Virus record (IMG/VR): IMGVR_UViG_2671180254_000012
From: a virus
Lineage: Duplodnaviria > Heunggongvirae > Uroviricota > Caudoviricetes
Length of the DNA stretch: 9,669 nt
Strand: one strand, 5' to 3'
The position numbers and the translations under genes are program-made. Positions 243 to 8,121 of this stretch are shown here, in pieces. Position 1 is the stretch's first letter; the number at the start of each line of letters is the position of its first letter. The notes beneath the pieces were generated by a model. The model was given only the letters and a program-made list of their open reading frames with translations. It was not told the DNA's origin and did not search any database.

Positions 243-1325
243 TCATTTTCTCTGGCTGATCTTTACCGGATAACCATCCCGAAGATCAATTAAGTGCTCC
301 GGTTCAGAAGCAAACCATGCATAAGATCCCCACGCCAATTCTGGTATTGCCTTTTTAAAAGGCAGAGCACTTCTGTCCATAAATGCCGTAAGGAATGCAA
401 GATTTTTCTCGCTGAACCCAGCGTCAATAGCCAAATGAGTGAGAGTAACTTTTCGTTCCCTGTTTATAGGCCCATCTGTCGCAACTACTTCAGTGAAAAC
501 TACAAGCATGTCCGAACCCGTTCGGTCCTCTCCCAAATCAATCAAAATAATATCTGGAAGTGCTTTTGAGGCATCAATATTCAGCCCCAATGCTTTTGCC
601 AATACATCATCCTGAGCAACAACTTTATTCCCGGATTCAGACAACCAGAGCACAGTTGGATTCTTAAGAAAATTAGGAGCAAAAACTTCGATGACGGCCT
701 TAGCTATTGTACTTGACGGGCCCGGAGCTAAAGTTCTCTTCTCTCCATTTGGGAAAGTGACGACTACGGCATCAGCAGCAATCACTGCCCCTGATTTCAA
801 TAAACGCAACCTAGCAAGAGCGGCTTTGTTCAAATGATTTTCTTGCCAGGAACTTATTGCACTCAGCAGCGAATCTCCTTCAAGCCCGGCATCAAAGAGT
901 GCTGCAAAAGAGCGATTCAAACTGTAACGAGGACGAGAGGATGTGGTGGGTATACCTTTACGCTCAACAATTGCATTGCAAGGTATTAGGCCATTTTTTA
1001 TAGTTTCATCACGTATTGGCTCACGCGTATTTTCCGCATACCATGCATCAGCAGGCCTTATCTTTTGTTTAGAGAAAGTCATCTTTACCCAGCTTTCTCT
1101 GGACGCATCATCAGTAAGAGCAGCCTGCGAATCTCCCATACTTACAACCTGGCTGGGCCTTATCCATCGCCCCAGCCCCTCAACCGCACCAGCATAAAAC
1201 ATGACAAAAATTGTTTTTGCAGCTATTTCCCGAATTAAATATCCACGATTCTCAGTCCCTTCAGGGAAAATTAATTGTAATCTTTCCCGGATAACATTCA
1301 ATGGGGGAACAACAGGCAGATTCAT
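243..1325 (-). CDS. Type II restriction endonuclease, BsuBI/PstI family
   Basis: 360-aa ORF immediately downstream of and ATGA-overlapping (1322-1325) an N6-adenine methyltransferase gene; the protein resembles the BsuBI/PstI endonuclease family by overall recognition. Not verified by search. Confidence 0.65.
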   Translation of the reverse strand: MNLPVVPPLNVIRERLQLIFPEGTENRGYLIREIAAKTIFVMFYAGAVEGLGRWIRPSQVVSMGDSQAALTDDASRESWVKMTFSKQKIRPADAWYAENTREPIRDETIKNGLIPCNAIVERKGIPTTSSRPRYSLNRSFAALFDAGLEGDSLLSAISSWQENHLNKAALARLRLLKSGAVIAADAVVVTFPNGEKRTLAPGPSSTIAKAVIEVFAPNFLKNPTVLWLSESGNKVVAQDDVLAKALGLNIDASKALPDIILIDLGEDRTGSDMLVVFTEVVATDGPINRERKVTLTHLAIDAGFSEKNLAFLTAFMDRSALPFKKAIPELAWGSYAWFASEPEHLIDLRDGYPVKISQRK

Positions 1326-2796
1326 GCAATCATCACTCCATAGAAACCAGCGATAGTTCTCTCAATAATCCGTCTGTGGACGCCAGCATCAATTAACGAT
1401 TGAATCTCCATCACCTGCTCCAGAGAAGGCAACGGGATTGAATTCAATTCATAGGCCGAAACAGCAACACTTCCGCTTATACACCTGAACGCCCGATCGA
1501 CAACATGCGAATTAAGTAGCATATCAATAACATCAGGGCGAACCGCAGAGAACAATCCGTTTGAATATACAATATTAATATGGTTTTCAACTACTACGCC
1601 ACCAGTTTCATCTATAAATCCCTGAGGTAAAATTGCCGCTAAAATCCTTCTGTCCTGTTCCTTCGATGTTGTCCGCTGAACAAGCACACATTCAGATTTT
1701 GTCACAAGGAAACCCTGTTGTGGGGTTATATCGATATAGGGAACATGATTTTTTCTGTCTGCACTAAAACGAAAACCAGCTGAAGTTATTGATTCCGCCC
1801 AGACTAATGGGTAGCTATTTTTTCCTTTCGTCGTACGCAACTGCGACTTAAATCGATTCCAGACTAACTGACCTGTAGAGACTGAGTATCCCAGATCAGC
1901 TAAACGCGTAGACATCTGTTTTAATACATTAAGAAAACAGGCATCATCTTTAACGCGTGGCAAAAGCCACGTTGCTCCACCTTTTTCTATATCAACATTA
2001 CCTATTTTCTCAATTTTTGCTTTGTTCAACCCCTTAGGGACAAGTGAGGATACCTGGGCCCGAACTTTATGTTCTCCCGCCTTGAATGCTGTCAACATTG
2101 TTTCCTGGAGAACATCGTCAAAGACCCCATCCCTGTCAGTGACGAAATCAAGGGCATACGGAGTAGTTTTTTCGGTCAAAAGGGTTCGCAGCGCGGTGAA
2201 ATACTGCCCACCAAGAAAAGAAGTTGGCGTAAGAAATGCAATAACTCCTGTTTTCTCTTTAACCATGCGAACAGCTAAGTCGGTGAACAATCCATATAGA
2301 TTTGCATGACCAAATAACGAACGAGAATATTTTTCTCTCGTTTTAATATCGAGAGTGACACGTCCGTAAGGCGGATTCCCTACCACAAGATCATAACCAG
2401 AAAATTTATCTTGCTGAAGCGCATCAGCAACAATAATTGTATCTTCAGGCAATCTACGTTTTACCTTTACACATAGTGGCATTAGTACAGATTCGAGCAA
2501 TACCAAACTCATCCAAGCCGCAAATGGATCGATCTCTATCCCCTTTAAACGACGACTGATTCTCCTCAACATCCATTCAGGGGAAGACCCCTTGTCTTTT
2601 TTTAACATTCGAATGGCTACTGGTGCCAAAAATGCACCGCCACCACACGCAGGATCAATAACCGATGCATGAGAAAAATCAACACCAGACTTTTCAGCCA
2701 GGTCCAAGAGACGCGCTACCAAAGGTGGGGGGGTATAGTAAGCCCCCAATTCCGAACGGTAAGCGGATGGCAGCATTACCGTATAAATTGACCCAA
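1322..2796 (-). CDS. N6-adenine DNA methyltransferase, gamma-class (PstI/BsuBI-type M subunit); 5' end lies in the N-run
   Basis: Translation contains GAYYTPPP (motif X), DPACGGGAFL (SAM-binding motif I) and VVGNPPYGR (catalytic motif IV, NPPY) in the gamma-class order. Stop TGA at 1322-1324 overlaps the endonuclease ATG. The N-terminus is hidden by the gap at 2797-3058. Confidence 0.8.
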
Positions 2797-3058
2797 NNNN
2801 NNNNNNNNNNNNNNNNNNNNNNNNNNNNNNNNNNNNNNNNNNNNNNNNNNNNNNNNNNNNNNNNNNNNNNNNNNNNNNNNNNNNNNNNNNNNNNNNNNNN
2901 NNNNNNNNNNNNNNNNNNNNNNNNNNNNNNNNNNNNNNNNNNNNNNNNNNNNNNNNNNNNNNNNNNNNNNNNNNNNNNNNNNNNNNNNNNNNNNNNNNNN
3001 NNNNNNNNNNNNNNNNNNNNNNNNNNNNNNNNNNNNNNNNNNNNNNNNNNNNNNNNNN
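2797..3058. other. Run of N (262 nt), assembly gap or masked segment
   Basis: Directly visible in the sequence. Confidence 0.95.
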
Positions 3059-3140
3059 TGGCCATGGCTTTACAAGTTTGATATCTTTCCAGATTAGAAA
3101 ACTCATTATCTGTAAAAAAATCAAAATGTTGCACATTCAT
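3059..3140 (-). CDS. 5' part of a small ORF of unknown function upstream of the methyltransferase (3' end in gap); could instead be the methyltransferase N-terminus
   Basis: ATG at 3140 (minus) giving MNVQHFDFFTDNEFSNLERYQTCKAMA before the N-run; weak AGGA upstream. Alternative starts at 3176 and 3136. Frame continuity across the gap cannot be established. Confidence 0.3.
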
Positions 3141-3390
3141 AATGTAAAATCCTAATGTATCAAACATGCGGGCCATAACATCTCATGGTGGCGCATAGCA
3201 AACTGGCCCGAAGAATATCACGCACCAAGTCGATCTCATAACCCGTTATGACAATAAATCTTTGTAGCTGAACTCACTTGGTGATTTGTCAATCATTCCT
3301 GGCCTCCAGTTCGTCCTGAATCTCTTTATCGAGTTCACCGTATTTGTTAGTCCTCATCACTCACGACTTGACTTCCAGAAATAACCTTGA

Positions 3391-3747
3391 TTATTCGGGG
3401 CTATATTTTGTCACCCTGCGTATCCGCGCTTTCGCATTACGCTCAATCTGGATTAGCTTTTCTATATTTTTTCGCCTTTCCCGCTCCTCCTGGCGCAAGA
3501 GCCTTACATCATCTGCCAGTCTGGTTTCTCTTTTCGCCACAGAGAGCATCCAGTCAAATGGCTCCACAACTGCACCGCAAATTTTACAGCGGACCTGACG
3601 CTCTTTTTCGTCAACCCGGACAGAAGCGTGATGGCAATATGGTCTTTCCGATGGCTCATAAAGAAAATTAACCTGATTACGAGGGTTATCCTCTTTTACC
3701 GGAAATAAAACAATATTGCTTAACTCATCTTCTGGTTTTATTTCCAT
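3391..3747 (-). CDS. Hypothetical phage protein with putative zinc ribbon (C-H-H...C-x-x-C) and a charged coiled-coil tail
   Basis: ATG at 3747 preceded by strong RBS (AAAGGAGAGGAGC) on the minus strand; the longest ORF extends to a GTG at 3804. Translation MEIKPEDELSNIVLFPV...CHHASVRVDEKERQVRCKICG...RRKNIEKLIQIERNAKARIRR. Confidence 0.5.
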   Translation of the reverse strand: MEIKPEDELSNIVLFPVKEDNPRNQVNFLYEPSERPYCHHASVRVDEKERQVRCKICGAVVEPFDWMLSVAKRETRLADDVRLLRQEERERRKNIEKLIQIERNAKARIRRVTKYSPE

Positions 3748-3804
3748 GCTCCTCTCCTTTGATGCGAATGCCAGCGGTAATTGAAGCCTGATAGCTAATT
3801 TCAC

Positions 3805-4227
3805 TCACAGTACCGCCTCCTGAAAATCACCCTGATAGAAAGCCGGTACACGCTGCATAACTTCACTCTTCCGGCACTCGCGACAGATTATGTTCTGATG
3901 TCTGTCGTAGCGGCGTATTTCTCCGTCCGGTAATGACCAGATAAGGTCCGGATCAACCACAGATGGTTTCTTCAGCTTTGCCCTCGAGAGTTTTTTGCGG
4001 GCGTTTTGCCAGTCCTTACGAGCCTGTTCAGACGGGAATAACCCGTAGCCAGAGTTGTATACATCCCCACTGGCAACCAGCTCTCTGGCGAGAACGCTTA
4101 TTAAATATCTTGTCGCCCCGGTTTTAGCTTCCAGTTGTCGTAACGTCTCGCGCCCACTCTGGCGTACGAGTTCAACAACCTGCCCCTTAATTTTTTCCCG
4201 CTCTTCCTGTGTAAATACTTTTGCCAT
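3805..4227 (-). CDS. Hypothetical phage protein with a predicted HTH segment
   Basis: ATG at 4227 with G-rich RBS; the longest ORF begins at a TTG at 4242. HTH-like stretch GRETLRQLEAKTGATRYLISVLARELVASG. Co-oriented with and tightly packed behind the replication genes. Confidence 0.5.
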   Translation of the reverse strand: MAKVFTQEEREKIKGQVVELVRQSGRETLRQLEAKTGATRYLISVLARELVASGDVYNSGYGLFPSEQARKDWQNARKKLSRAKLKKPSVVDPDLIWSLPDGEIRRYDRHQNIICRECRKSEVMQRVPAFYQGDFQEAVL

Positions 4228-4242
4228 AAGCGCCCCCGGCAA

Positions 4243-4968
4243 TCACTTTTCCGACACAATACGACCGGAGGAATCGACAATCTGTCGAACAATATCCCGG
4301 TGCTTGTTCAGCTCCCGCAACGCGGCGCAGACACGCTCCCACTTCTGGACATGACTTTTCGCCCGACGCAGTTCGCGGTTTGCCATATGCAGCGATGGTA
4401 AAACCAGGTCATCCGCTTGCGTTTCGGTGAACGATGGCAACGACTGCACAATGTCCGCCACAGTTTCTGTTTTAATTTCTTCCTGTGTTGCAGCTTCCTG
4501 TACCGGTAACGCAACACCTGCTGGCTGAGGAAAGACTTTACCATCCGTTTCCGCTATGGATGCGGCTTTCGGCTCTGCCGGTAAATCAGCGCCCGGTATG
4601 CAGTACCGAAATTTACCGCCCTGATTCACGCGAATCAGACGCCCTTTGCTGATTGCCATGGCCAGCGATGAATTCGCCCGGCGGGAGGTAATCCCGAACA
4701 TCAGTGCCAGCTCATCCGCCGTTTGTGGGCCATGTTGTTCAATCGCCTCAGTCAGCATTTGCGCTGTCACTTTCGGTACCGGTGACACTGGTTCACTTTC
4801 ACCAGCCTGAATCAGCCACCACATCGAACCCTTGTTATCCGCTTCACCACGGCGCTTCAGTTTCCACAGTTCGTTGACCGCATCTTCACGGCTGATTCCA
4901 AGGCGGGACGCCACCACATGTGAAGAGGCTCTTTTCAGTGCTTTCAGTGCGTCAAATACAGTTTCCAT
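4243..4968 (-). CDS. Hypothetical phage protein with two tandem winged-helix-like domains and a C-terminal helical region
   Basis: ATG at 4968 with GGAGGA RBS 9 nt upstream (minus strand); the track start at 4986 is a TTG. Two HTH-like segments ([24 protein letters not shown] and [31 protein letters not shown]). Starts 22 nt after the DnaC-like stop. Confidence 0.55.
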
Positions 4969-4989
4969 TAAAACATCCTCCAACAAAAA

Positions 4990-5476
4990 TTACTTCACAA
5001 CTCCCGGAAAGCTGACATTTGAACGCCAGCTATCCCAGTTAAACGTCACCCACCGACAACCGTTCATGGTCATGCGGTCCATAATCCTCTCACCAAGAAG
5101 CGTGCTCATTGCGGCATGATTCAGGTTTGTTAACATCCCGACACTGCACAGTGATGCTGTCCGGCGATCAATTATCTGGTGCAATACCACCTGCTCGTTT
5201 TTCGTCTCCCGCTGAATGCCTATTTCATCCAGGACCAGCAAATCAACCCCGCAAAGCTCCTGTAAAAATTTTTCACCGGATTTGCCGTTGTCGTAGCTGT
5301 CATGCAACACGCTCATGACATCAGACTCGGTGACGATAATCACGCTGCGCCCCTTCGCCATCAGCCGGTTACCCATCGCCGCTGCAAGGTGATTTTTCCC
5401 GGTGCCGGTTTTACCGCTGAACACAAAATTCGTGCACCCGGTCATCAGTTCGTCAGCTATGGATTTGGCCTGGCTC
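4990..5476 (-). CDS. DnaC-like AAA+ helicase loader (phage replication protein), N-terminus in gap
   Basis: Walker A FSGKTGTGKNHLAAAMG and Walker B-like LLVLDEIG; the frame stays open upstream of the ATG at 5445 to the N-run edge (SQAKSIADEL...), so the true start is hidden. Confidence 0.75.
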
Positions 5477-5726
5477 NNNNNNNNNNNNNNNNNNNNNNNN
5501 NNNNNNNNNNNNNNNNNNNNNNNNNNNNNNNNNNNNNNNNNNNNNNNNNNNNNNNNNNNNNNNNNNNNNNNNNNNNNNNNNNNNNNNNNNNNNNNNNNNN
5601 NNNNNNNNNNNNNNNNNNNNNNNNNNNNNNNNNNNNNNNNNNNNNNNNNNNNNNNNNNNNNNNNNNNNNNNNNNNNNNNNNNNNNNNNNNNNNNNNNNNN
5701 NNNNNNNNNNNNNNNNNNNNNNNNNN
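5477..5726. other. Run of N (250 nt), assembly gap or masked segment
   Basis: Directly visible in the sequence. Confidence 0.95.
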
Positions 5727-6640
5727 TTCACACAACGCTGGTTGTTCGTGCCGCTTACCGGGAGCAACCAGGGGTTTTCAAAATTCCGGTCCGGCCCAAA
5801 AAACGTCGTCGCTCGCTGAACAAATTCCGTTCCCGCTTTCCCGGTCGCCGCCAGGTATCTCGCGTAACGCCTCACACCATCCAGCATGGTCTCTGGTGGC
5901 ACCCCCTCGCGCAATCTGGCCTTCCAGGCACTGAATGCGGATTTCTTCGGGTTTGCCCCGGCACGCAACGGGTATTCCCGCCAGACCTGTTCGAACACAT
6001 CCGGATAATCCACTCGTCCCACAGGCTGCCCGGTGTTTTCCGGGGCTACCCGATCGGCTTCCCGCTGAATGGCGGAATCGGCTTCAGGCTGCTGCAGTTG
6101 GAGTGATTGCTCCGGCCTTGCGGTCATCACCTGCTGCACAGCGCCCGAATCGGCTTTCAGCGCATACGCTGAATCGGCTTCCGGTGTCGAGCCTGCTGGC
6201 TGACCAGGATTGACGGTCTGAACATCCCCTGCCTGGTTCGTGGCGTTTTTTACGCCATGGACCATAGTGTTTTGATCTTCTTTATCTGTATCTTTATCTG
6301 TATCTGTCGTGACTCGTCGTGACATGTGCGTGACATTTCGTGACGCGCCGTGACAATCGCCATTTTGTTCCCGCTTTCTTTCCCTCTCTCGCTGCGCCCT
6401 CTTGCGCTCTGCAGGAGATTTTGCGGTTTGCGAAATATTGCCGTTGTCCTCTTTAAGCACCTGGCGTTTTTCCCATCCAGTGATTAAATCACCATCAAGT
6501 ACCCGCCCCTGCATCGTCTGCAAAATTGAATCAATTACCTCTTCTGTCACGTCGAGCGCACTTGCCAAATCTTCTGTCGTGACATCAATGTGACCTCGCG
6601 TGACATTTCGTGACGCGCTCACCAGGAGGTGGATATACAC
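5727..6640 (-). CDS. Phage replication initiator (O-like / YdaU-like replisome organiser), both ends in gaps
   Basis: Open frame between two N-runs; N-terminal DNA-binding-like region, low-complexity acidic linker (TDTDKDTDKED, PEADSA repeats) and conserved C-terminal region (DYPDVFEQVWREYPLRAGANPKK...TTFFGPDRNFENPW). Sits between YdaT-like and DnaC-like genes as in Rac-type replication modules. Contains iteron-like DNA repeats. Confidence 0.6.
6053..6181. repeat. Four copies of (GA)ATCGGCTT(C/T) in the initiator linker-coding region
   Basis: Copies beginning at 6053, 6077, 6149 and 6173 (spacings 24, 72, 24 bp); they encode the EADS/KADS peptide repeats of the initiator. Confidence 0.45.
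6281..6354. repeat. Iteron-like array: two tandem 12-mers (TTTATCTGTATC) followed by five helically phased CGTGAC repeats; candidate replication origin
   Basis: 12-mers at 6281-6292 and 6293-6304; CGTGAC at 6308, 6318, 6329, 6339 and 6349 (spacings 10, 11, 10, 10 bp); AT-rich tract immediately adjacent (about 6265-6305). Confidence 0.45.
6579..6618. repeat. Second phased GTGAC array; includes an exact 21-bp copy of a segment of the first array
   Basis: GTGAC at 6579, 6590, 6600 and 6610 (spacings 11, 10, 10 bp); GCGTGACATTTCGTGACGCGC at 6598-6618 is identical to 6328-6348. Confidence 0.45.
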
Positions 6641-6895
6641 NNNNNNNNNNNNNNNNNNNNNNNNNNNNNNNNNNNNNNNNNNNNNNNNNNNNNNNNNNNN
6701 NNNNNNNNNNNNNNNNNNNNNNNNNNNNNNNNNNNNNNNNNNNNNNNNNNNNNNNNNNNNNNNNNNNNNNNNNNNNNNNNNNNNNNNNNNNNNNNNNNNN
6801 NNNNNNNNNNNNNNNNNNNNNNNNNNNNNNNNNNNNNNNNNNNNNNNNNNNNNNNNNNNNNNNNNNNNNNNNNNNNNNNNNNNNNNNNNNNNNNN
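6641..6895. other. Run of N (255 nt), assembly gap or masked segment
   Basis: Directly visible in the sequence. Confidence 0.95.
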
Positions 6896-7249
6896 GACAA
6901 AATCATCAGCGTCTCTCACCAGTCGTTCATGCGTCTCCACCAGTTCCCGAAAATAAGCTGAACTGTGGCTGCGCATTCGAGCCACCAGCGGAGGTGGCAT
7001 TGCCCTTTCGATCGCAGGTAACAACGCCTGAATTTTTTCAACAGCGTCAGGGGTGTCTTTATCCAGCCAACGGAAAATCTTTTGGGTGTTGAGATAAAGC
7101 GTGTTGTGCTTGCTGTCGTTATGCAGAACCGGAAACGTCATTCCCAGTTCGAAATAAACCCTGGTTATTTCAGCTGCCGGAACTTTTTCACCGTCCGGAT
7201 GCGCCCAGGCTTTCATCGCCATGCGGATGTGTTCATGCTTGATTTTCAT
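6896..7249 (-). CDS. ydaT: YdaT-like protein (Rac-prophage-type, proposed CII-like regulator/toxin), C-terminus in gap
   Basis: N-terminus MKIKHEHIRMAMKAWAHPDGEKVPAAEITR... recalled as the YdaT family; ATG at 7249 overlaps the stop of the upstream HTH gene in an ATGA arrangement. Confidence 0.6.
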
Positions 7250-7509
7250 GAATCAACCCCCGCCGATGGTTGTGTGTTAGCCTGAAACTCAGCAGGCAAG
7301 CCGTCAGTTGGGTTGGGGTAGGTTTTACTGTCAATCTCATGTGGGGTCACCACCCATCCCGTTGCTTCACACCAACGTAATATTTTTTCTCCTGTAAGTT
7401 TTGCACGCCCCGTTATAACGTGGCTGACCATCCCTTGGGATGCGCCAACAATCTCAGCAAATGAACTCTGGGTTATATGAAAATGATGCAAATATTCTCC
7501 AAGATTCAT
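7246..7509 (-). CDS. Cro/YdaS-like HTH DNA-binding protein (first gene of the rightward early operon)
   Basis: ATG at 7509 with AGGGCGGA RBS; HTH segment SSFAEIVGASQGMVSHVITG; divergent from the repressor gene; stop overlaps the YdaT-like start. The longest ORF starts at a TTG at 7536. Confidence 0.6.
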   Translation of the reverse strand: MNLGEYLHHFHITQSSFAEIVGASQGMVSHVITGRAKLTGEKILRWCEATGWVVTPHEIDSKTYPNPTDGLPAEFQANTQPSAGVDS

Positions 7510-7545
7510 AATCCGCCCTATGTGATGTGTTACCAATGCATAATT

Positions 7546-7585
7546 AATAGCACTGTTATTTTTAAAAGTAAATAGTGATACTATT
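7546..7585. promoter_or_regulatory. OR-like operator region: two 15-bp inverted-repeat sites (AATAG-N5-YTATT) between the divergent repressor and cro-like genes
   Basis: AATAGTGATACTATT at 7571-7585 (6-bp arms AATAGT/ACTATT, 3-bp spacer) and the imperfect AATAGCACTGTTATT at 7546-7560, 25 bp centre to centre; on the minus strand a TTGAAA -35-like hexamer flanks the palindrome. Confidence 0.45.
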
Positions 7586-7620
7586 TCAAAGTGATTAGCA
7601 ATCTTATTAGAATTGGATGT

Positions 7621-8121
7621 ATGAAAAGAAAATCATTGTCAGACACCGACCTCAACGCCGCCAGAAGACTGAAAGAAATCTGGATGGCAAAGAAATCTCA
7701 GTTGGGATTGACTCAGGAACGTGCGGCGGAAATTATGGGGTTTTCAACACAAGGGGCGGTAAGTCACTACCTAAATGGTCAAACCCCACTAAACCTTGAG
7801 GCTGTTCTAAAGTTTGCTGGCTTACTGAAAGTTCCCCCTGAGTCAATCAGGCCAGACATGGTAGATTTGCTGCAAATTGCAAGGATGTATTGTCGAGAAC
7901 CACAGCAAGATAACATAGTCGCATTACCAGCAGACACAGAACAAACAGAGGATGAACTACCGTTTGCCGTAGAGCCGATGGAACGAGATTTAATCCATAC
8001 GTTCAGAGCTTTTCCGAAAGAAGATCAAGAACACATGCTTCAGGAGATGAAAGATAAAAAAGAATCAATGGATCGTACGGTTGCGCGGTGGTTAGCTGCA
8101 CAAAAAGGCCGTCGCGCCTAA
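7621..8121 (+). CDS. cI-like prophage repressor (RacR/PaaR2-like), HTH XRE-type N-terminal domain, no recognisable LexA-type peptidase domain
   Basis: ATG at 7621 (the track start at 7591 is a GTG); HTH LGLTQERAAEIMGFSTQGAVSHYLNG; divergent to the cro-like gene; no obvious SD, so possibly a leaderless or short-leader transcript as for lambda cI from pRM. Confidence 0.65.
   Translation: MKRKSLSDTDLNAARRLKEIWMAKKSQLGLTQERAAEIMGFSTQGAVSHYLNGQTPLNLEAVLKFAGLLKVPPESIRPDMVDLLQIARMYCREPQQDNIVALPADTEQTEDELPFAVEPMERDLIHTFRAFPKEDQEHMLQEMKDKKESMDRTVARWLAAQKGRRA

Follow-up and report, generated by a model that had tools for sequence, protein, structure and literature searches.

Genes A, B and C are three small genes lying between the helicase loader and the R-M module of a 9,669-nucleotide stretch of DNA (the window). 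They probably belong to the early-right (pR-type) operon of a Rac/lambdoid prophage as separate accessory genes, independently shuffled and with no tie to the R-M module. All three belong to catalogued families with annotated members in thousands of E. coli and Shigella prophages, and one of them, gene B, is by profile and sequence comparison remotely homologous to lambda Ren over its full length. The trio is of limited weight for this window, since its families are catalogued and the link to R-M that had been proposed for it fails.

Layout and coding signal of the three genes

The whole window is nearly identical to a Shigella/E. coli prophage contig. All three genes are on the minus strand. 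Their common orientation, their RBSs, the short spacers and the lengths of 241, 140 and 118 aa had been described in the earlier note and are confirmed. The locus reads as follows.

4990 to 5445, minus strand: C-terminal part of a DnaC/IstB-like helicase loader (PF01695, E 5e-18; phrog_50, E 2.4e-55), its N-terminus masked by Ns
4968 (ATG) to 4243 (TGA), minus strand: gene A, 241 aa, DUF1627 / YdaW family protein
4227 (ATG) to 3805 (TGA), minus strand: gene B, 140 aa, DUF977 / LygF, remote full-length lambda Ren homologue by sequence comparison
3747 (ATG) to 3391 (TAA), minus strand: gene C, 118 aa, PHROG 1621 protein with no Pfam family above cut-off
243 to 3390, minus strand: 254-bp spacer, HsdM-like methyltransferase and BsuBI/PstI-type endonuclease (PF06616, PF17728), a moron cassette outside the trio

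Gene A starts 21 nt past the stop codon of the DnaC-like gene, with GGAGGA 8 nt upstream of it, and spacers of 15 nt (A-B) and 57 nt (B-C) follow, the RBS of gene C being AAGGAGAGGAG. The lengths of the three genes are matched exactly by RefSeq calls in one homologous prophage. When homologous alleles were compared, mismatches at codon positions 1/2/3 numbered 124/112/302 for gene A, 330/330/1617 for gene B and 101/98/465 for gene C, and each gene belongs to a protein family conserved across Enterobacterales. This third-position bias of substitutions and the breadth of the families indicate that A, B and C are more than chance open reading frames.

Rac (YdaU-YdaV-YdaW-LygF) and E. coli 13E0780 share the order helicase loader, A, B, C. 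Intact Rac-like phages read YdaV(DnaC)-YdaW(DUF1627)-LygF(DUF977), in the same order as the window, and those sampled carry no gene C after LygF, unlike the window. Scanning positions 3000-5500 revealed no terminator-like site on the minus strand within A-B-C, all such matches being on the plus strand, and no sigma-70-like promoter at the stringency used. At this stringency there is therefore no sign of an internal promoter or terminator, nor of an R-M-specific promoter in the 254-bp spacer. No operator-like repeats were found in the A-B-C region and no RNA family was detected by Rfam in the whole window at E values up to 0.1.

Families and folds of the three products

Gene B matches the Pfam family DUF977 (PF06163) with 105.9 bits (cut-off 22.1) over profile positions 1-134 of 134, and phrog_142, "Ren-like exclusion protein", with an E value of 2e-46; lambda Ren itself matches phrog_142 at E 1.6e-41. 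Aligning the B family with lambda Ren by hhalign gave a probability of 97.4% (E 9.8e-12) over residues 14-132 of B and 4-93 of Ren, and tblastn of Ren against some B alleles ran near full length, with 28-29% over 90 aa. The most conserved block of the hhalign alignment is a C-terminal motif.

3832 to 3903, minus strand: C-terminal Ren motif NIICRECRKSEVMQRVPAFYQ, B residues 109-132 (BLASTP and hhalign)

By BLASTP this motif is 50% identical (E 1e-5) to lambda Ren residues 73-92 (NLVFKECRQSAAMKRVLAVY). Like B, lambda Ren combines an N-terminal winged helix with a C-terminal N-[IL]-[IV]-x-x-E-C-R-x-S-x-x-M-x-R-V motif, of which N-I-I-C-x-E-C-R is conserved in B, and is the product of an early-right operon gene that closely follows the replication genes. 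The winged helix of B is that of DUF977 and agrees with the HTH segment noticed earlier. The two proteins differ in length (96 aa for Ren, 140 aa for B), B having an insertion of about 40 residues between winged helix and motif. Lambda ren directly follows P, whereas gene A separates the helicase loader from B here, although B stands directly after the DnaC gene in many related loci. Pairwise identity is low and lambda Ren was not matched by the Pfam DUF977 profile at E<0.1, so that the function of B may have diverged from that of Ren. Profile comparison thus ties DUF977 to a long-known anti-exclusion gene that lacks a mechanistic explanation. The homology contradicts the statement of the earlier note that none of the three genes carries motifs of known nin-region functions; for the NinB, NinG/Rap, RusA and Q families, no Pfam or PHROG match was obtained with A, B or C.

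Ren allows lambda to escape Rex exclusion, and ren mutants were reportedly found to be Rex-sensitive by Toothman and Herskowitz in 1980. By analogy, B probably acts like Ren in escape from Rex-type exclusion; we know of no Rex-like system in the Shigella and E. coli hosts of this prophage that would be the relevant target. The name LygF, to which no function is attached in the literature, is a positional one, from the Sdf region of Salmonella Enteritidis. In lambda, the pR transcript runs cro-cII-O-P-ren with ren directly after P (PMC3640518), and two-hybrid interactions have been published for RexB-Ren and Rex-O/Ren (PMC3224144; bioRxiv 10.1101/2021.04.19.439022). Fusions of DUF977 to Fic domains are also known, in which it is presumed to be an autoregulatory HTH (PMC2686095). 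Otherwise, DUF1627 and DUF977 receive only passing mentions in the literature.

Gene A matches Pfam PF07789 with 309.2 bits (cut-off 28.1) over profile positions 1-155 of 155 and phrog_630 at E 1.7e-121. It is 99% identical to a Shigella sonnei DUF1627 protein and 57% identical over 151 aa, spanning both winged helices, to YdaW (b1361) of the K-12 Rac prophage, which differs from gene A in being truncated by the Rac deletion and in lacking the conserved C-terminal DUF1627 helices. An alignment of 33 sequences with identities down to 19%, together with the AF2 model, shows that gene A and the family members are built alike, with a pair of winged helices at the N-terminus, a linker that varies and a conserved helix at the C-terminus.

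4810 to 4968, minus strand: first winged helix, A residues 1-53 (AF2 pLDDT 93-97, H-E-H-H-E-E)
4597 to 4767, minus strand: second winged helix, A residues 68-124 (AF2 pLDDT about 95)
4393 to 4596, minus strand: acidic, variable, disordered linker, A residues 125-192 (pLDDT 50-58; pI 4.05)
4252 to 4392, minus strand: basic C-terminal helical hairpin, the DUF1627 core, A residues 193-239 (helices 193-222 and 224-239, pLDDT >90)

The tandem winged-helix-like domains assigned to this protein beforehand are thus present in the model as two winged helices, both confident with pLDDT >90. In the first one (pI 9.8), L34 and W50 do not vary across the family alignment; the linker varies across the family in length as well as in sequence, and the hairpin (pI 10.8) carries the family motif IPSFT...EIRRTK..L..LE..R with an invariant R201. 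The family profile matches PDB winged-helix chains (ADAR1, AspA, MarR), and Foldseek retrieved the tandem winged-helix proteins DIP2311, ScpB, SelB and AlkX. Two consecutive winged helices, as in A, are found in ScpB, the C-terminal domains of SelB, ESCRT-II and AlkX/YcaQ (Foldseek E 2e-5 to 1e-3). This is a match at the level of the fold only, with 13-22% identity and no shared sequence family, and the C-terminal helical hairpin is unique to A; the TM score of about 0.2 is attributed to the flexible linker of A.

We also considered whether A is a Z-alpha protein, as its profile matched chains of ADAR1 and ZBP1. Z-alpha domains were recognised by an Asn and a Tyr in the recognition helix and a Trp in the wing (ADAR1 N173, Y177 and W195); in the A family only the wing Trp (W50 of the first winged helix) is invariant, the Asn and Tyr positions being unconserved by eye, and A is thus a generic winged-helix protein rather than a Z-alpha one. 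Paralogy of the A winged helices with B and Ren was likewise considered. The second winged helix has a weak match to PHROG 142 (Ren-like; E 1.9e-4), and hhalign of the A family gave an E value of 0.014 against B and of 0.0013, with a probability of 18%, against lambda Ren; these scores are too weak and we make no such claim.

Gene C matches phrog_1621 over residues 1-115 at E 1.1e-54 and has 150 homologues across Enterobacterales with identities down to 39%. Its two recognisable parts confirm the zinc ribbon and coiled-coil of the initial description.

3565 to 3642, minus strand: CxH...CxxC zinc ribbon, C residues 36-61 (C38, H40, C54 and C57 invariant in 48 sequences)
3403 to 3561, minus strand: long basic helix, probable coiled coil, C residues 63-115 (a single helix in the AF2 model)

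The AF2 model places a beta hairpin at residues 43-54 of the ribbon. PHROG 1621 proteins encoded in the nin region of Enterobacterales prophages have the same zinc ligands and conserved helix. Likeness to a TFIIB-type zinc ribbon stayed sub-threshold both in Pfam (PF08271, 21.6 bits under a cut-off of 29) and in Foldseek (E 0.39). The gene C profile had no match in the PDB, fold searches with gene C were uninformative and neither Pfam nor the predicted structure contained an HTH. Across the trio, NCBIfam gave no meaningful match, single sequences of A, B and C retrieved nothing from the PDB below E 0.3, and among PADLOC defence components the sole match was one of 12.5 bits with gene A, at chance level, with none for B or C.

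Independent assortment in prophages

Among 5426 complete E. coli genomes, matches covering at least 80% of the gene were found in 809 for A, 3891 for B and 1671 for C, and any match in 2396, 4051 and 1679, respectively; DUF977 is thereby present in about 72% of them. The contiguous A-B-C trio occurs in 233 of the 5426. In 159 viral loci all of the combinations A-B-C, A-B, B-C, A-C, B alone and C alone were encountered, and each gene is dispensable in many related prophages that share the same replication module. We conclude that recombination shuffles A, B and C independently, as mosaic modules, and that they are not an operonic machine. The proposal of a functional unit largely fails, as linkage is not conserved; homology to Ren and the lack of conservation as a linked set, the two observations that the earlier note had itself set against its proposal, were both found.

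In other genera, gene C occupies another position. In five loci whose neighbours were checked against PHROGs (two from Erwinia and one each from Symbiopectobacterium, Photorhabdus and Pantoea) it is flanked by NinG/HNH on one side and Q on the other, with stop and start codons that often overlap, and similar neighbours were seen by eye in further loci; in the window, unlike in those genera, it stands after the Ren-like gene and before the R-M insertion. Fourteen loci from other genera have gene C without adjoining A or B. In one of these 14, a true Ren is found some 7 kb upstream of it.

Possible functions and the R-M module

If the three genes are indeed separate accessory genes of the early-right operon, they would be transcribed in line with the replication genes, with no internal terminator, and expressed together with the replication proteins after induction or infection. 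B would then most likely contact exclusion or replication proteins and so enable the phage to escape the Rex-type abortive exclusion that resident prophages exert. A would probably act at the same early stage as a dimeric adaptor binding nucleic acid or protein, possibly against host defences of the toxin type, and C would probably oligomerise through its helix and bind nucleic acid or a host factor.

A more specific version, which we consider unlikely, is that each gene is an independent early counter-defence factor, B acting against Rex-like systems, A against toxins such as retron RcaT and C against another immunity system. K-12 ydaW was identified as a blocker of the retron-Sen2 toxin RcaT in an over-expression screen (bioRxiv 10.1101/2020.06.22.160242). 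That result is a single hit of the screen, obtained with the K-12 protein in its truncated form, and had no follow-up. The homology of B to Ren and the blocking of the retron toxin by K-12 YdaW lend some support to the general idea of this position as a counter-defence or accessory slot. Were all three genes such factors, the post-replication slot of Rac-type prophages would be a modular anti-defence island. DUF1627/YdaW and PHROG 1621, very common early prophage genes, are in any case reasonable, if non-urgent, candidates for a counter-defence screen.

Also unlikely is that A, B and C are replication accessory factors that bind the origin, the initiator or the loader and tune initiation of prophage replication instead of countering defence. 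Their position directly after the initiator and loader genes, whether the loader is of the DnaC or the P type, fits this, as do the basic winged helices (domain pI about 10), the ScpB-like tandem winged-helix fold of A and the description of Ren as "likely involved in DNA replication" with two-hybrid contacts to O-related partners (bioRxiv 10.1101/2021.04.19.439022). However, prophages with the same replication module often dispense with each of the genes, Ren is unneeded for lambda replicative killing or P-lethality (PMC3640518), and gene C is found far from replication genes, beside Q, in other genera.

We regard as improbable that A and B are conventional winged-helix transcription factors regulating promoters of the phage or the host, with C as a zinc-ribbon protein that co-regulates late transcription. 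Winged-helix folds matching MarR/ArsR-type regulators, the inclusion of YdaW among predicted E. coli transcription factors (PMC9308461), the DUF977-Fic fusions with their presumed autoregulatory HTH (PMC2686095) and, for C, the sub-threshold TFIIB-type ribbon and a place immediately upstream of Q in other genera would agree with such a role. Against it, the region lacks operator-like repeats and promoter-like sites, the best fold matches of A are adaptors (ScpB, ESCRT-II, SelB) and not dimeric repressors, no regulon is known for them and Ren is not known to be a transcription factor.

That A-B-C form one functional unit regulating or cooperating with R-M, for instance in restriction timing or protection of phage DNA, is very improbable and largely refuted by distribution: the trio does adjoin the module in the same orientation in the window, and wherever the 99-100% identical R-M lineage was examined, in six viral contigs and one E. 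coli genome, gene C is directly upstream of it and the junction is unchanged, but the module of the window occurs in 2 of the 5426 complete E. coli genomes, against about 3900 with B, about 1670 with C and 809 to 2396 with A. Twenty viral contigs carry diverged R-M homologues (RE 61-91% identical) and lack all of A, B and C within 6 kb. Among R-M-bearing loci, A was detected in just two viral contigs; where upstream sequence was long enough to judge, it is absent from E. coli FDAARGOS_943, one of the two R-M-bearing E. coli genomes, and from three or more of the other contigs, and B varies from 74 to 100% identity. Because the junction between C and R-M is constant, gene C was considered as the R-M controller and then ruled out by distribution; none of A, B and C resembles a controller (C-) protein, a small Xre-type HTH protein found with R-M, and C and the methyltransferase are set apart by a 254-bp spacer. 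In the great majority of cases A, B and C are found without any R-M, and the R-M cassette is an infrequent insertion, placed downstream of a single C allele and probably with no functional tie to the trio.

Layout and coding evidence

The three co-oriented ORFs that the earlier note had placed between the DnaC/IstB-like helicase-loader gene and the restriction-modification (R-M) module are present at exactly the positions it gave, on the minus strand:

4968-4243, minus strand: gene A, ORF of 241 aa (ATG 4968 to TGA 4243)
4227-3805, minus strand: gene B, ORF of 140 aa (ATG 4227 to TGA 3805)
3747-3391, minus strand: gene C, ORF of 118 aa (ATG 3747 to TAA 3391)

Their Shine-Dalgarno sequences are GGAGGA (A), GGGGG (B) and AAGGAGAGGAG (C), the spacers before the genes measure 21, 15 and 57 nt (the first counted from the DnaC/IstB-like stop at 4990), and the same three gene lengths appear in the RefSeq annotation of a homologous E. 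coli prophage. Substitutions between alleles at codon positions 1/2/3 of the called frames (A 124/112/302, B 330/330/1617, C 101/98/465) are in excess at third positions, indicating that all three encode proteins and evolve under purifying selection. Inside the trio the coding strand carries no terminator-like site, consistent with co-transcription with the upstream replication genes. A GTG at 3804, abutting the stop of B, would lengthen the ORF of C to 137 aa (window 3748-3804), and a 132-aa form is annotated in large database clusters (P0017, a protein similar to C, 3282 members). The cross-genus alignment starts at ATG 3747, and the 118-aa form is therefore the conserved protein. Runs of N (masked sequence) fall at ~2790-3060 in the N-terminal part of the methyltransferase, at ~5480-5730 where the DnaC-like gene starts, and at ~6640-6900 midway through the large replication-initiator ORF (5453-7249). 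ORF lengths at these runs are unreliable, and what reads as a 598-aa initiator "ORF" may comprise two or more genes.

Family identities and predicted roles

A, B and C belong to catalogued families abundant in E. coli and Shigella prophages, and the finding is in this respect ordinary. The window alleles are 99-100% identical to database entries, near-identical ones being Shigella sonnei proteins and IMG/VR contig 2698536302_000009.

In Pfam, A falls in DUF1627 as a full-length member (309 bits, cut-off 28.1); it also matches phrog_630 (E 1.7e-121). Its first 151 residues share 57% identity with YdaW of K-12 Rac, which is truncated by the Rac deletion; the intact A-type gene is annotated ydaW in Rac-like phages. 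The family is small (159 representatives at 50% identity among 1.84 billion proteins) and restricted to enterobacterial prophages. An AF2 model from a 33-sequence alignment (mean pLDDT 81) has four segments:

Residues 1-53: winged helix, confident (AF2)
Residues 68-124: winged helix, confident (AF2)
Residues 125-192: disordered, acidic, length-variable linker (AF2 and family alignment)
Residues 193-239: conserved, basic helical hairpin (AF2 and family alignment)

Foldseek retrieved tandem winged-helix proteins (DIP2311, ScpB, SelB, ESCRT-II and AlkX/YcaQ; E 2e-5 to 1e-3) and a PDB profile search the winged helices of ADAR1 and ZBP1 Z-alpha, AspA and MarR. Z-alpha identity was rejected because the A family does not conserve the signature Asn and Tyr, and the fold is thus read as a winged helix of generic type. 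In an over-expression screen, K-12 ydaW came up as a blocker of the retron-Sen2 toxin RcaT (bioRxiv 10.1101/2020.06.22.160242).

Homology to Ren, which the earlier note had named as speaking against its proposal, was found for B. This protein belongs to Pfam DUF977 (105.9 bits, cut-off 22.1), its gene type being annotated LygF in Rac-like phages, and matches phrog_142, "Ren-like exclusion protein" (E 2e-46), as does lambda Ren (E 1.6e-41). The C-terminal motifs of B and lambda Ren align by BLASTP (NIICRECRKSEVMQRVPAFY and NLVFKECRQSAAMKRVLAVY), Ren and some B alleles share 28-29% identity over 90 residues by tblastn, and a 64-sequence alignment of the B family, compared by hhalign with lambda Ren and one Leclercia Ren, gave a probability of 97.4% (E 9.8e-12, B 14-132 / Ren 4-93). 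Together these matches argue that B is a genuine, enlarged Ren homologue, and a remote one, since lambda Ren does not match Pfam DUF977 at E<0.1. Both proteins share a winged helix and the Ren C-terminal motif, but B is enlarged by an insertion of about 40 residues. This explicit profile-level evidence for DUF977/LygF homology to lambda Ren is one useful by-product.

In classical work of Toothman and Herskowitz (1980), ren mutants were reportedly sensitive to Rex exclusion. Most likely, B would act like Ren via protein contacts of its winged helix and C-terminal motif, allowing an induced or infecting phage to escape Rex-type abortive exclusion. In lambda, ren closes the pR transcript cro-cII-O-P-ren (PMC3640518); set against the ren coordinates, the nin5 deletion, with its start at base 40,503 (PMC3349717), removes the C-terminal codons of ren. 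Two-hybrid tests found a RexB-Ren interaction and Rex interacting with O and Ren, the latter being described as "likely involved in DNA replication" (PMC3224144; bioRxiv 10.1101/2021.04.19.439022). A role of A, B and C as replication accessory factors would fit that description and has less support than the Ren-like action of B; the same holds for the view, compatible with the winged helices, that they are ordinary transcription factors. A, a basic protein with two winged helices in tandem and a hairpin that probably dimerises, may bind nucleic acid or a host/defence protein at the same stage.

C matches phrog_1621 (E 1.1e-54); no Pfam family passes the threshold. Across 48 homologues, the most distant about 44% identical, C38, H40, C54 and C57 are invariant and the C-terminal segment LRxEExQRRxNIEKLIQIERNAKARIRR nearly so. 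C probably oligomerises via its basic helix and binds nucleic acid or a host factor. Neither A nor B adjoins C in 14 loci of other genera (among them Kluyvera, Erwinia, Symbiopectobacterium, Photorhabdus, Pantoea, Yersinia, Phytobacter, Entomohabitans, Enterobacter and Leclercia), and in the Leclercia locus L024 a true Ren homologue lies ~7 kb upstream. In those other-genus loci that were checked, C is flanked by a NinG/Rap or HNH gene and a Q antiterminator gene, and stop and start codons often overlap; by this position C is itself a gene of the nin region. In loci L011, L012, L016, L023 and L024, the C start overlaps the upstream NinG/Rap stop (coordinates 8001, 8004), which suggests translational coupling within the nin operon of distant genera. 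Some database proteins (P0006, P0013, P0036, P0039 and P0041), as C fusions mostly in single-member clusters, join most of C to Ea22-like, DUF1133/Q-like, DUF1627 or DUF977 sequences and are probably recombination or frameshift chimeras at mosaic boundaries, not real domain fusions.

Assortment of the genes and the R-M module

Megablast matches among 5426 complete E. coli genomes (genomes with any match; genomes with a match covering >=80%)
A: 2396; 809
B: 4051; 3891
C: 1679; 1671
Contiguous trio: 4278 (any part); 233
R-M module of the window: 2; 2

The earlier note had taken the trio for a candidate functional unit. A set of 159 IMG/VR loci, with B or C as the anchor, shows every combination (A-B-C, B-C, A-B, A-C, B alone and C alone), always in the order A to B to C and downstream of a helicase loader of DnaC or other type. 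With the contiguous trio in 233 of the 5426 genomes, and linkage absent from the 14 other-genus loci, the genomic distribution shows modular assortment and not a unit. It is unlikely that the slot is a modular counter-defence island. One contig, L186 (IMGVR_UViG_2693429779_000014), has in succession A, part of B, another DnaC-like gene, another B, C and R-M; here the loader/Ren-like segment has been duplicated in tandem or bears the scar of a recombination, an example of how readily this region recombines.

The R-M module comprises two genes overlapping by 4 nt (window 243-3136):

1322-3136, minus strand: HsdM-like N6-adenine methyltransferase, N-terminal part masked by Ns
243-1325, minus strand: BsuBI/PstI-family endonuclease

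Two of the complete E. coli genomes carry the exact module, as do 6 IMG/VR contigs, in every case directly downstream of one C allele; throughout this lineage (99-100% identity) that allele and the junction are constant. One of the two genomes, FDAARGOS_943, carries loader-B-C-M-R without A, its B being only 75% identical, and 20 other viral contigs carry endonuclease homologues (61-91% identity) with none of A, B or C. Judged by these distributions, A, B and C are independent of R-M, and the suggestion that the trio cooperates with it is effectively refuted. R-M resembles a moron inserted into the nin region, the simplest reading being a single insertion downstream of one C allele, later spread by flanking recombination. 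In FDAARGOS_943, R-M is followed by a ParD/ParE pair and DUF968-RusA-Q.

Immunity region of the window

7246-7536, minus strand: HTH protein, 96 aa, heading the replication operon
7591-8121, plus strand: HTH_3 repressor-like protein, 176 aa
8141-8625, plus strand (both genes within): PaaA2-type antitoxin (64 aa, PF21217, E 3e-23) and ParE toxin (96 aa, PF05016, E 1.8e-17)

The two HTH genes form a divergent immunity pair (7246-8121), closer to the RacR/YdaS or DicA/DicC arrangement than to lambda CI/Cro, and no LexA/S24 cleavage domain was detectable in the 176-aa protein. Immediately downstream of the repressor-like gene, the antitoxin and toxin genes overlap by one base; they form a toxin-antitoxin pair of type II within the immunity region.
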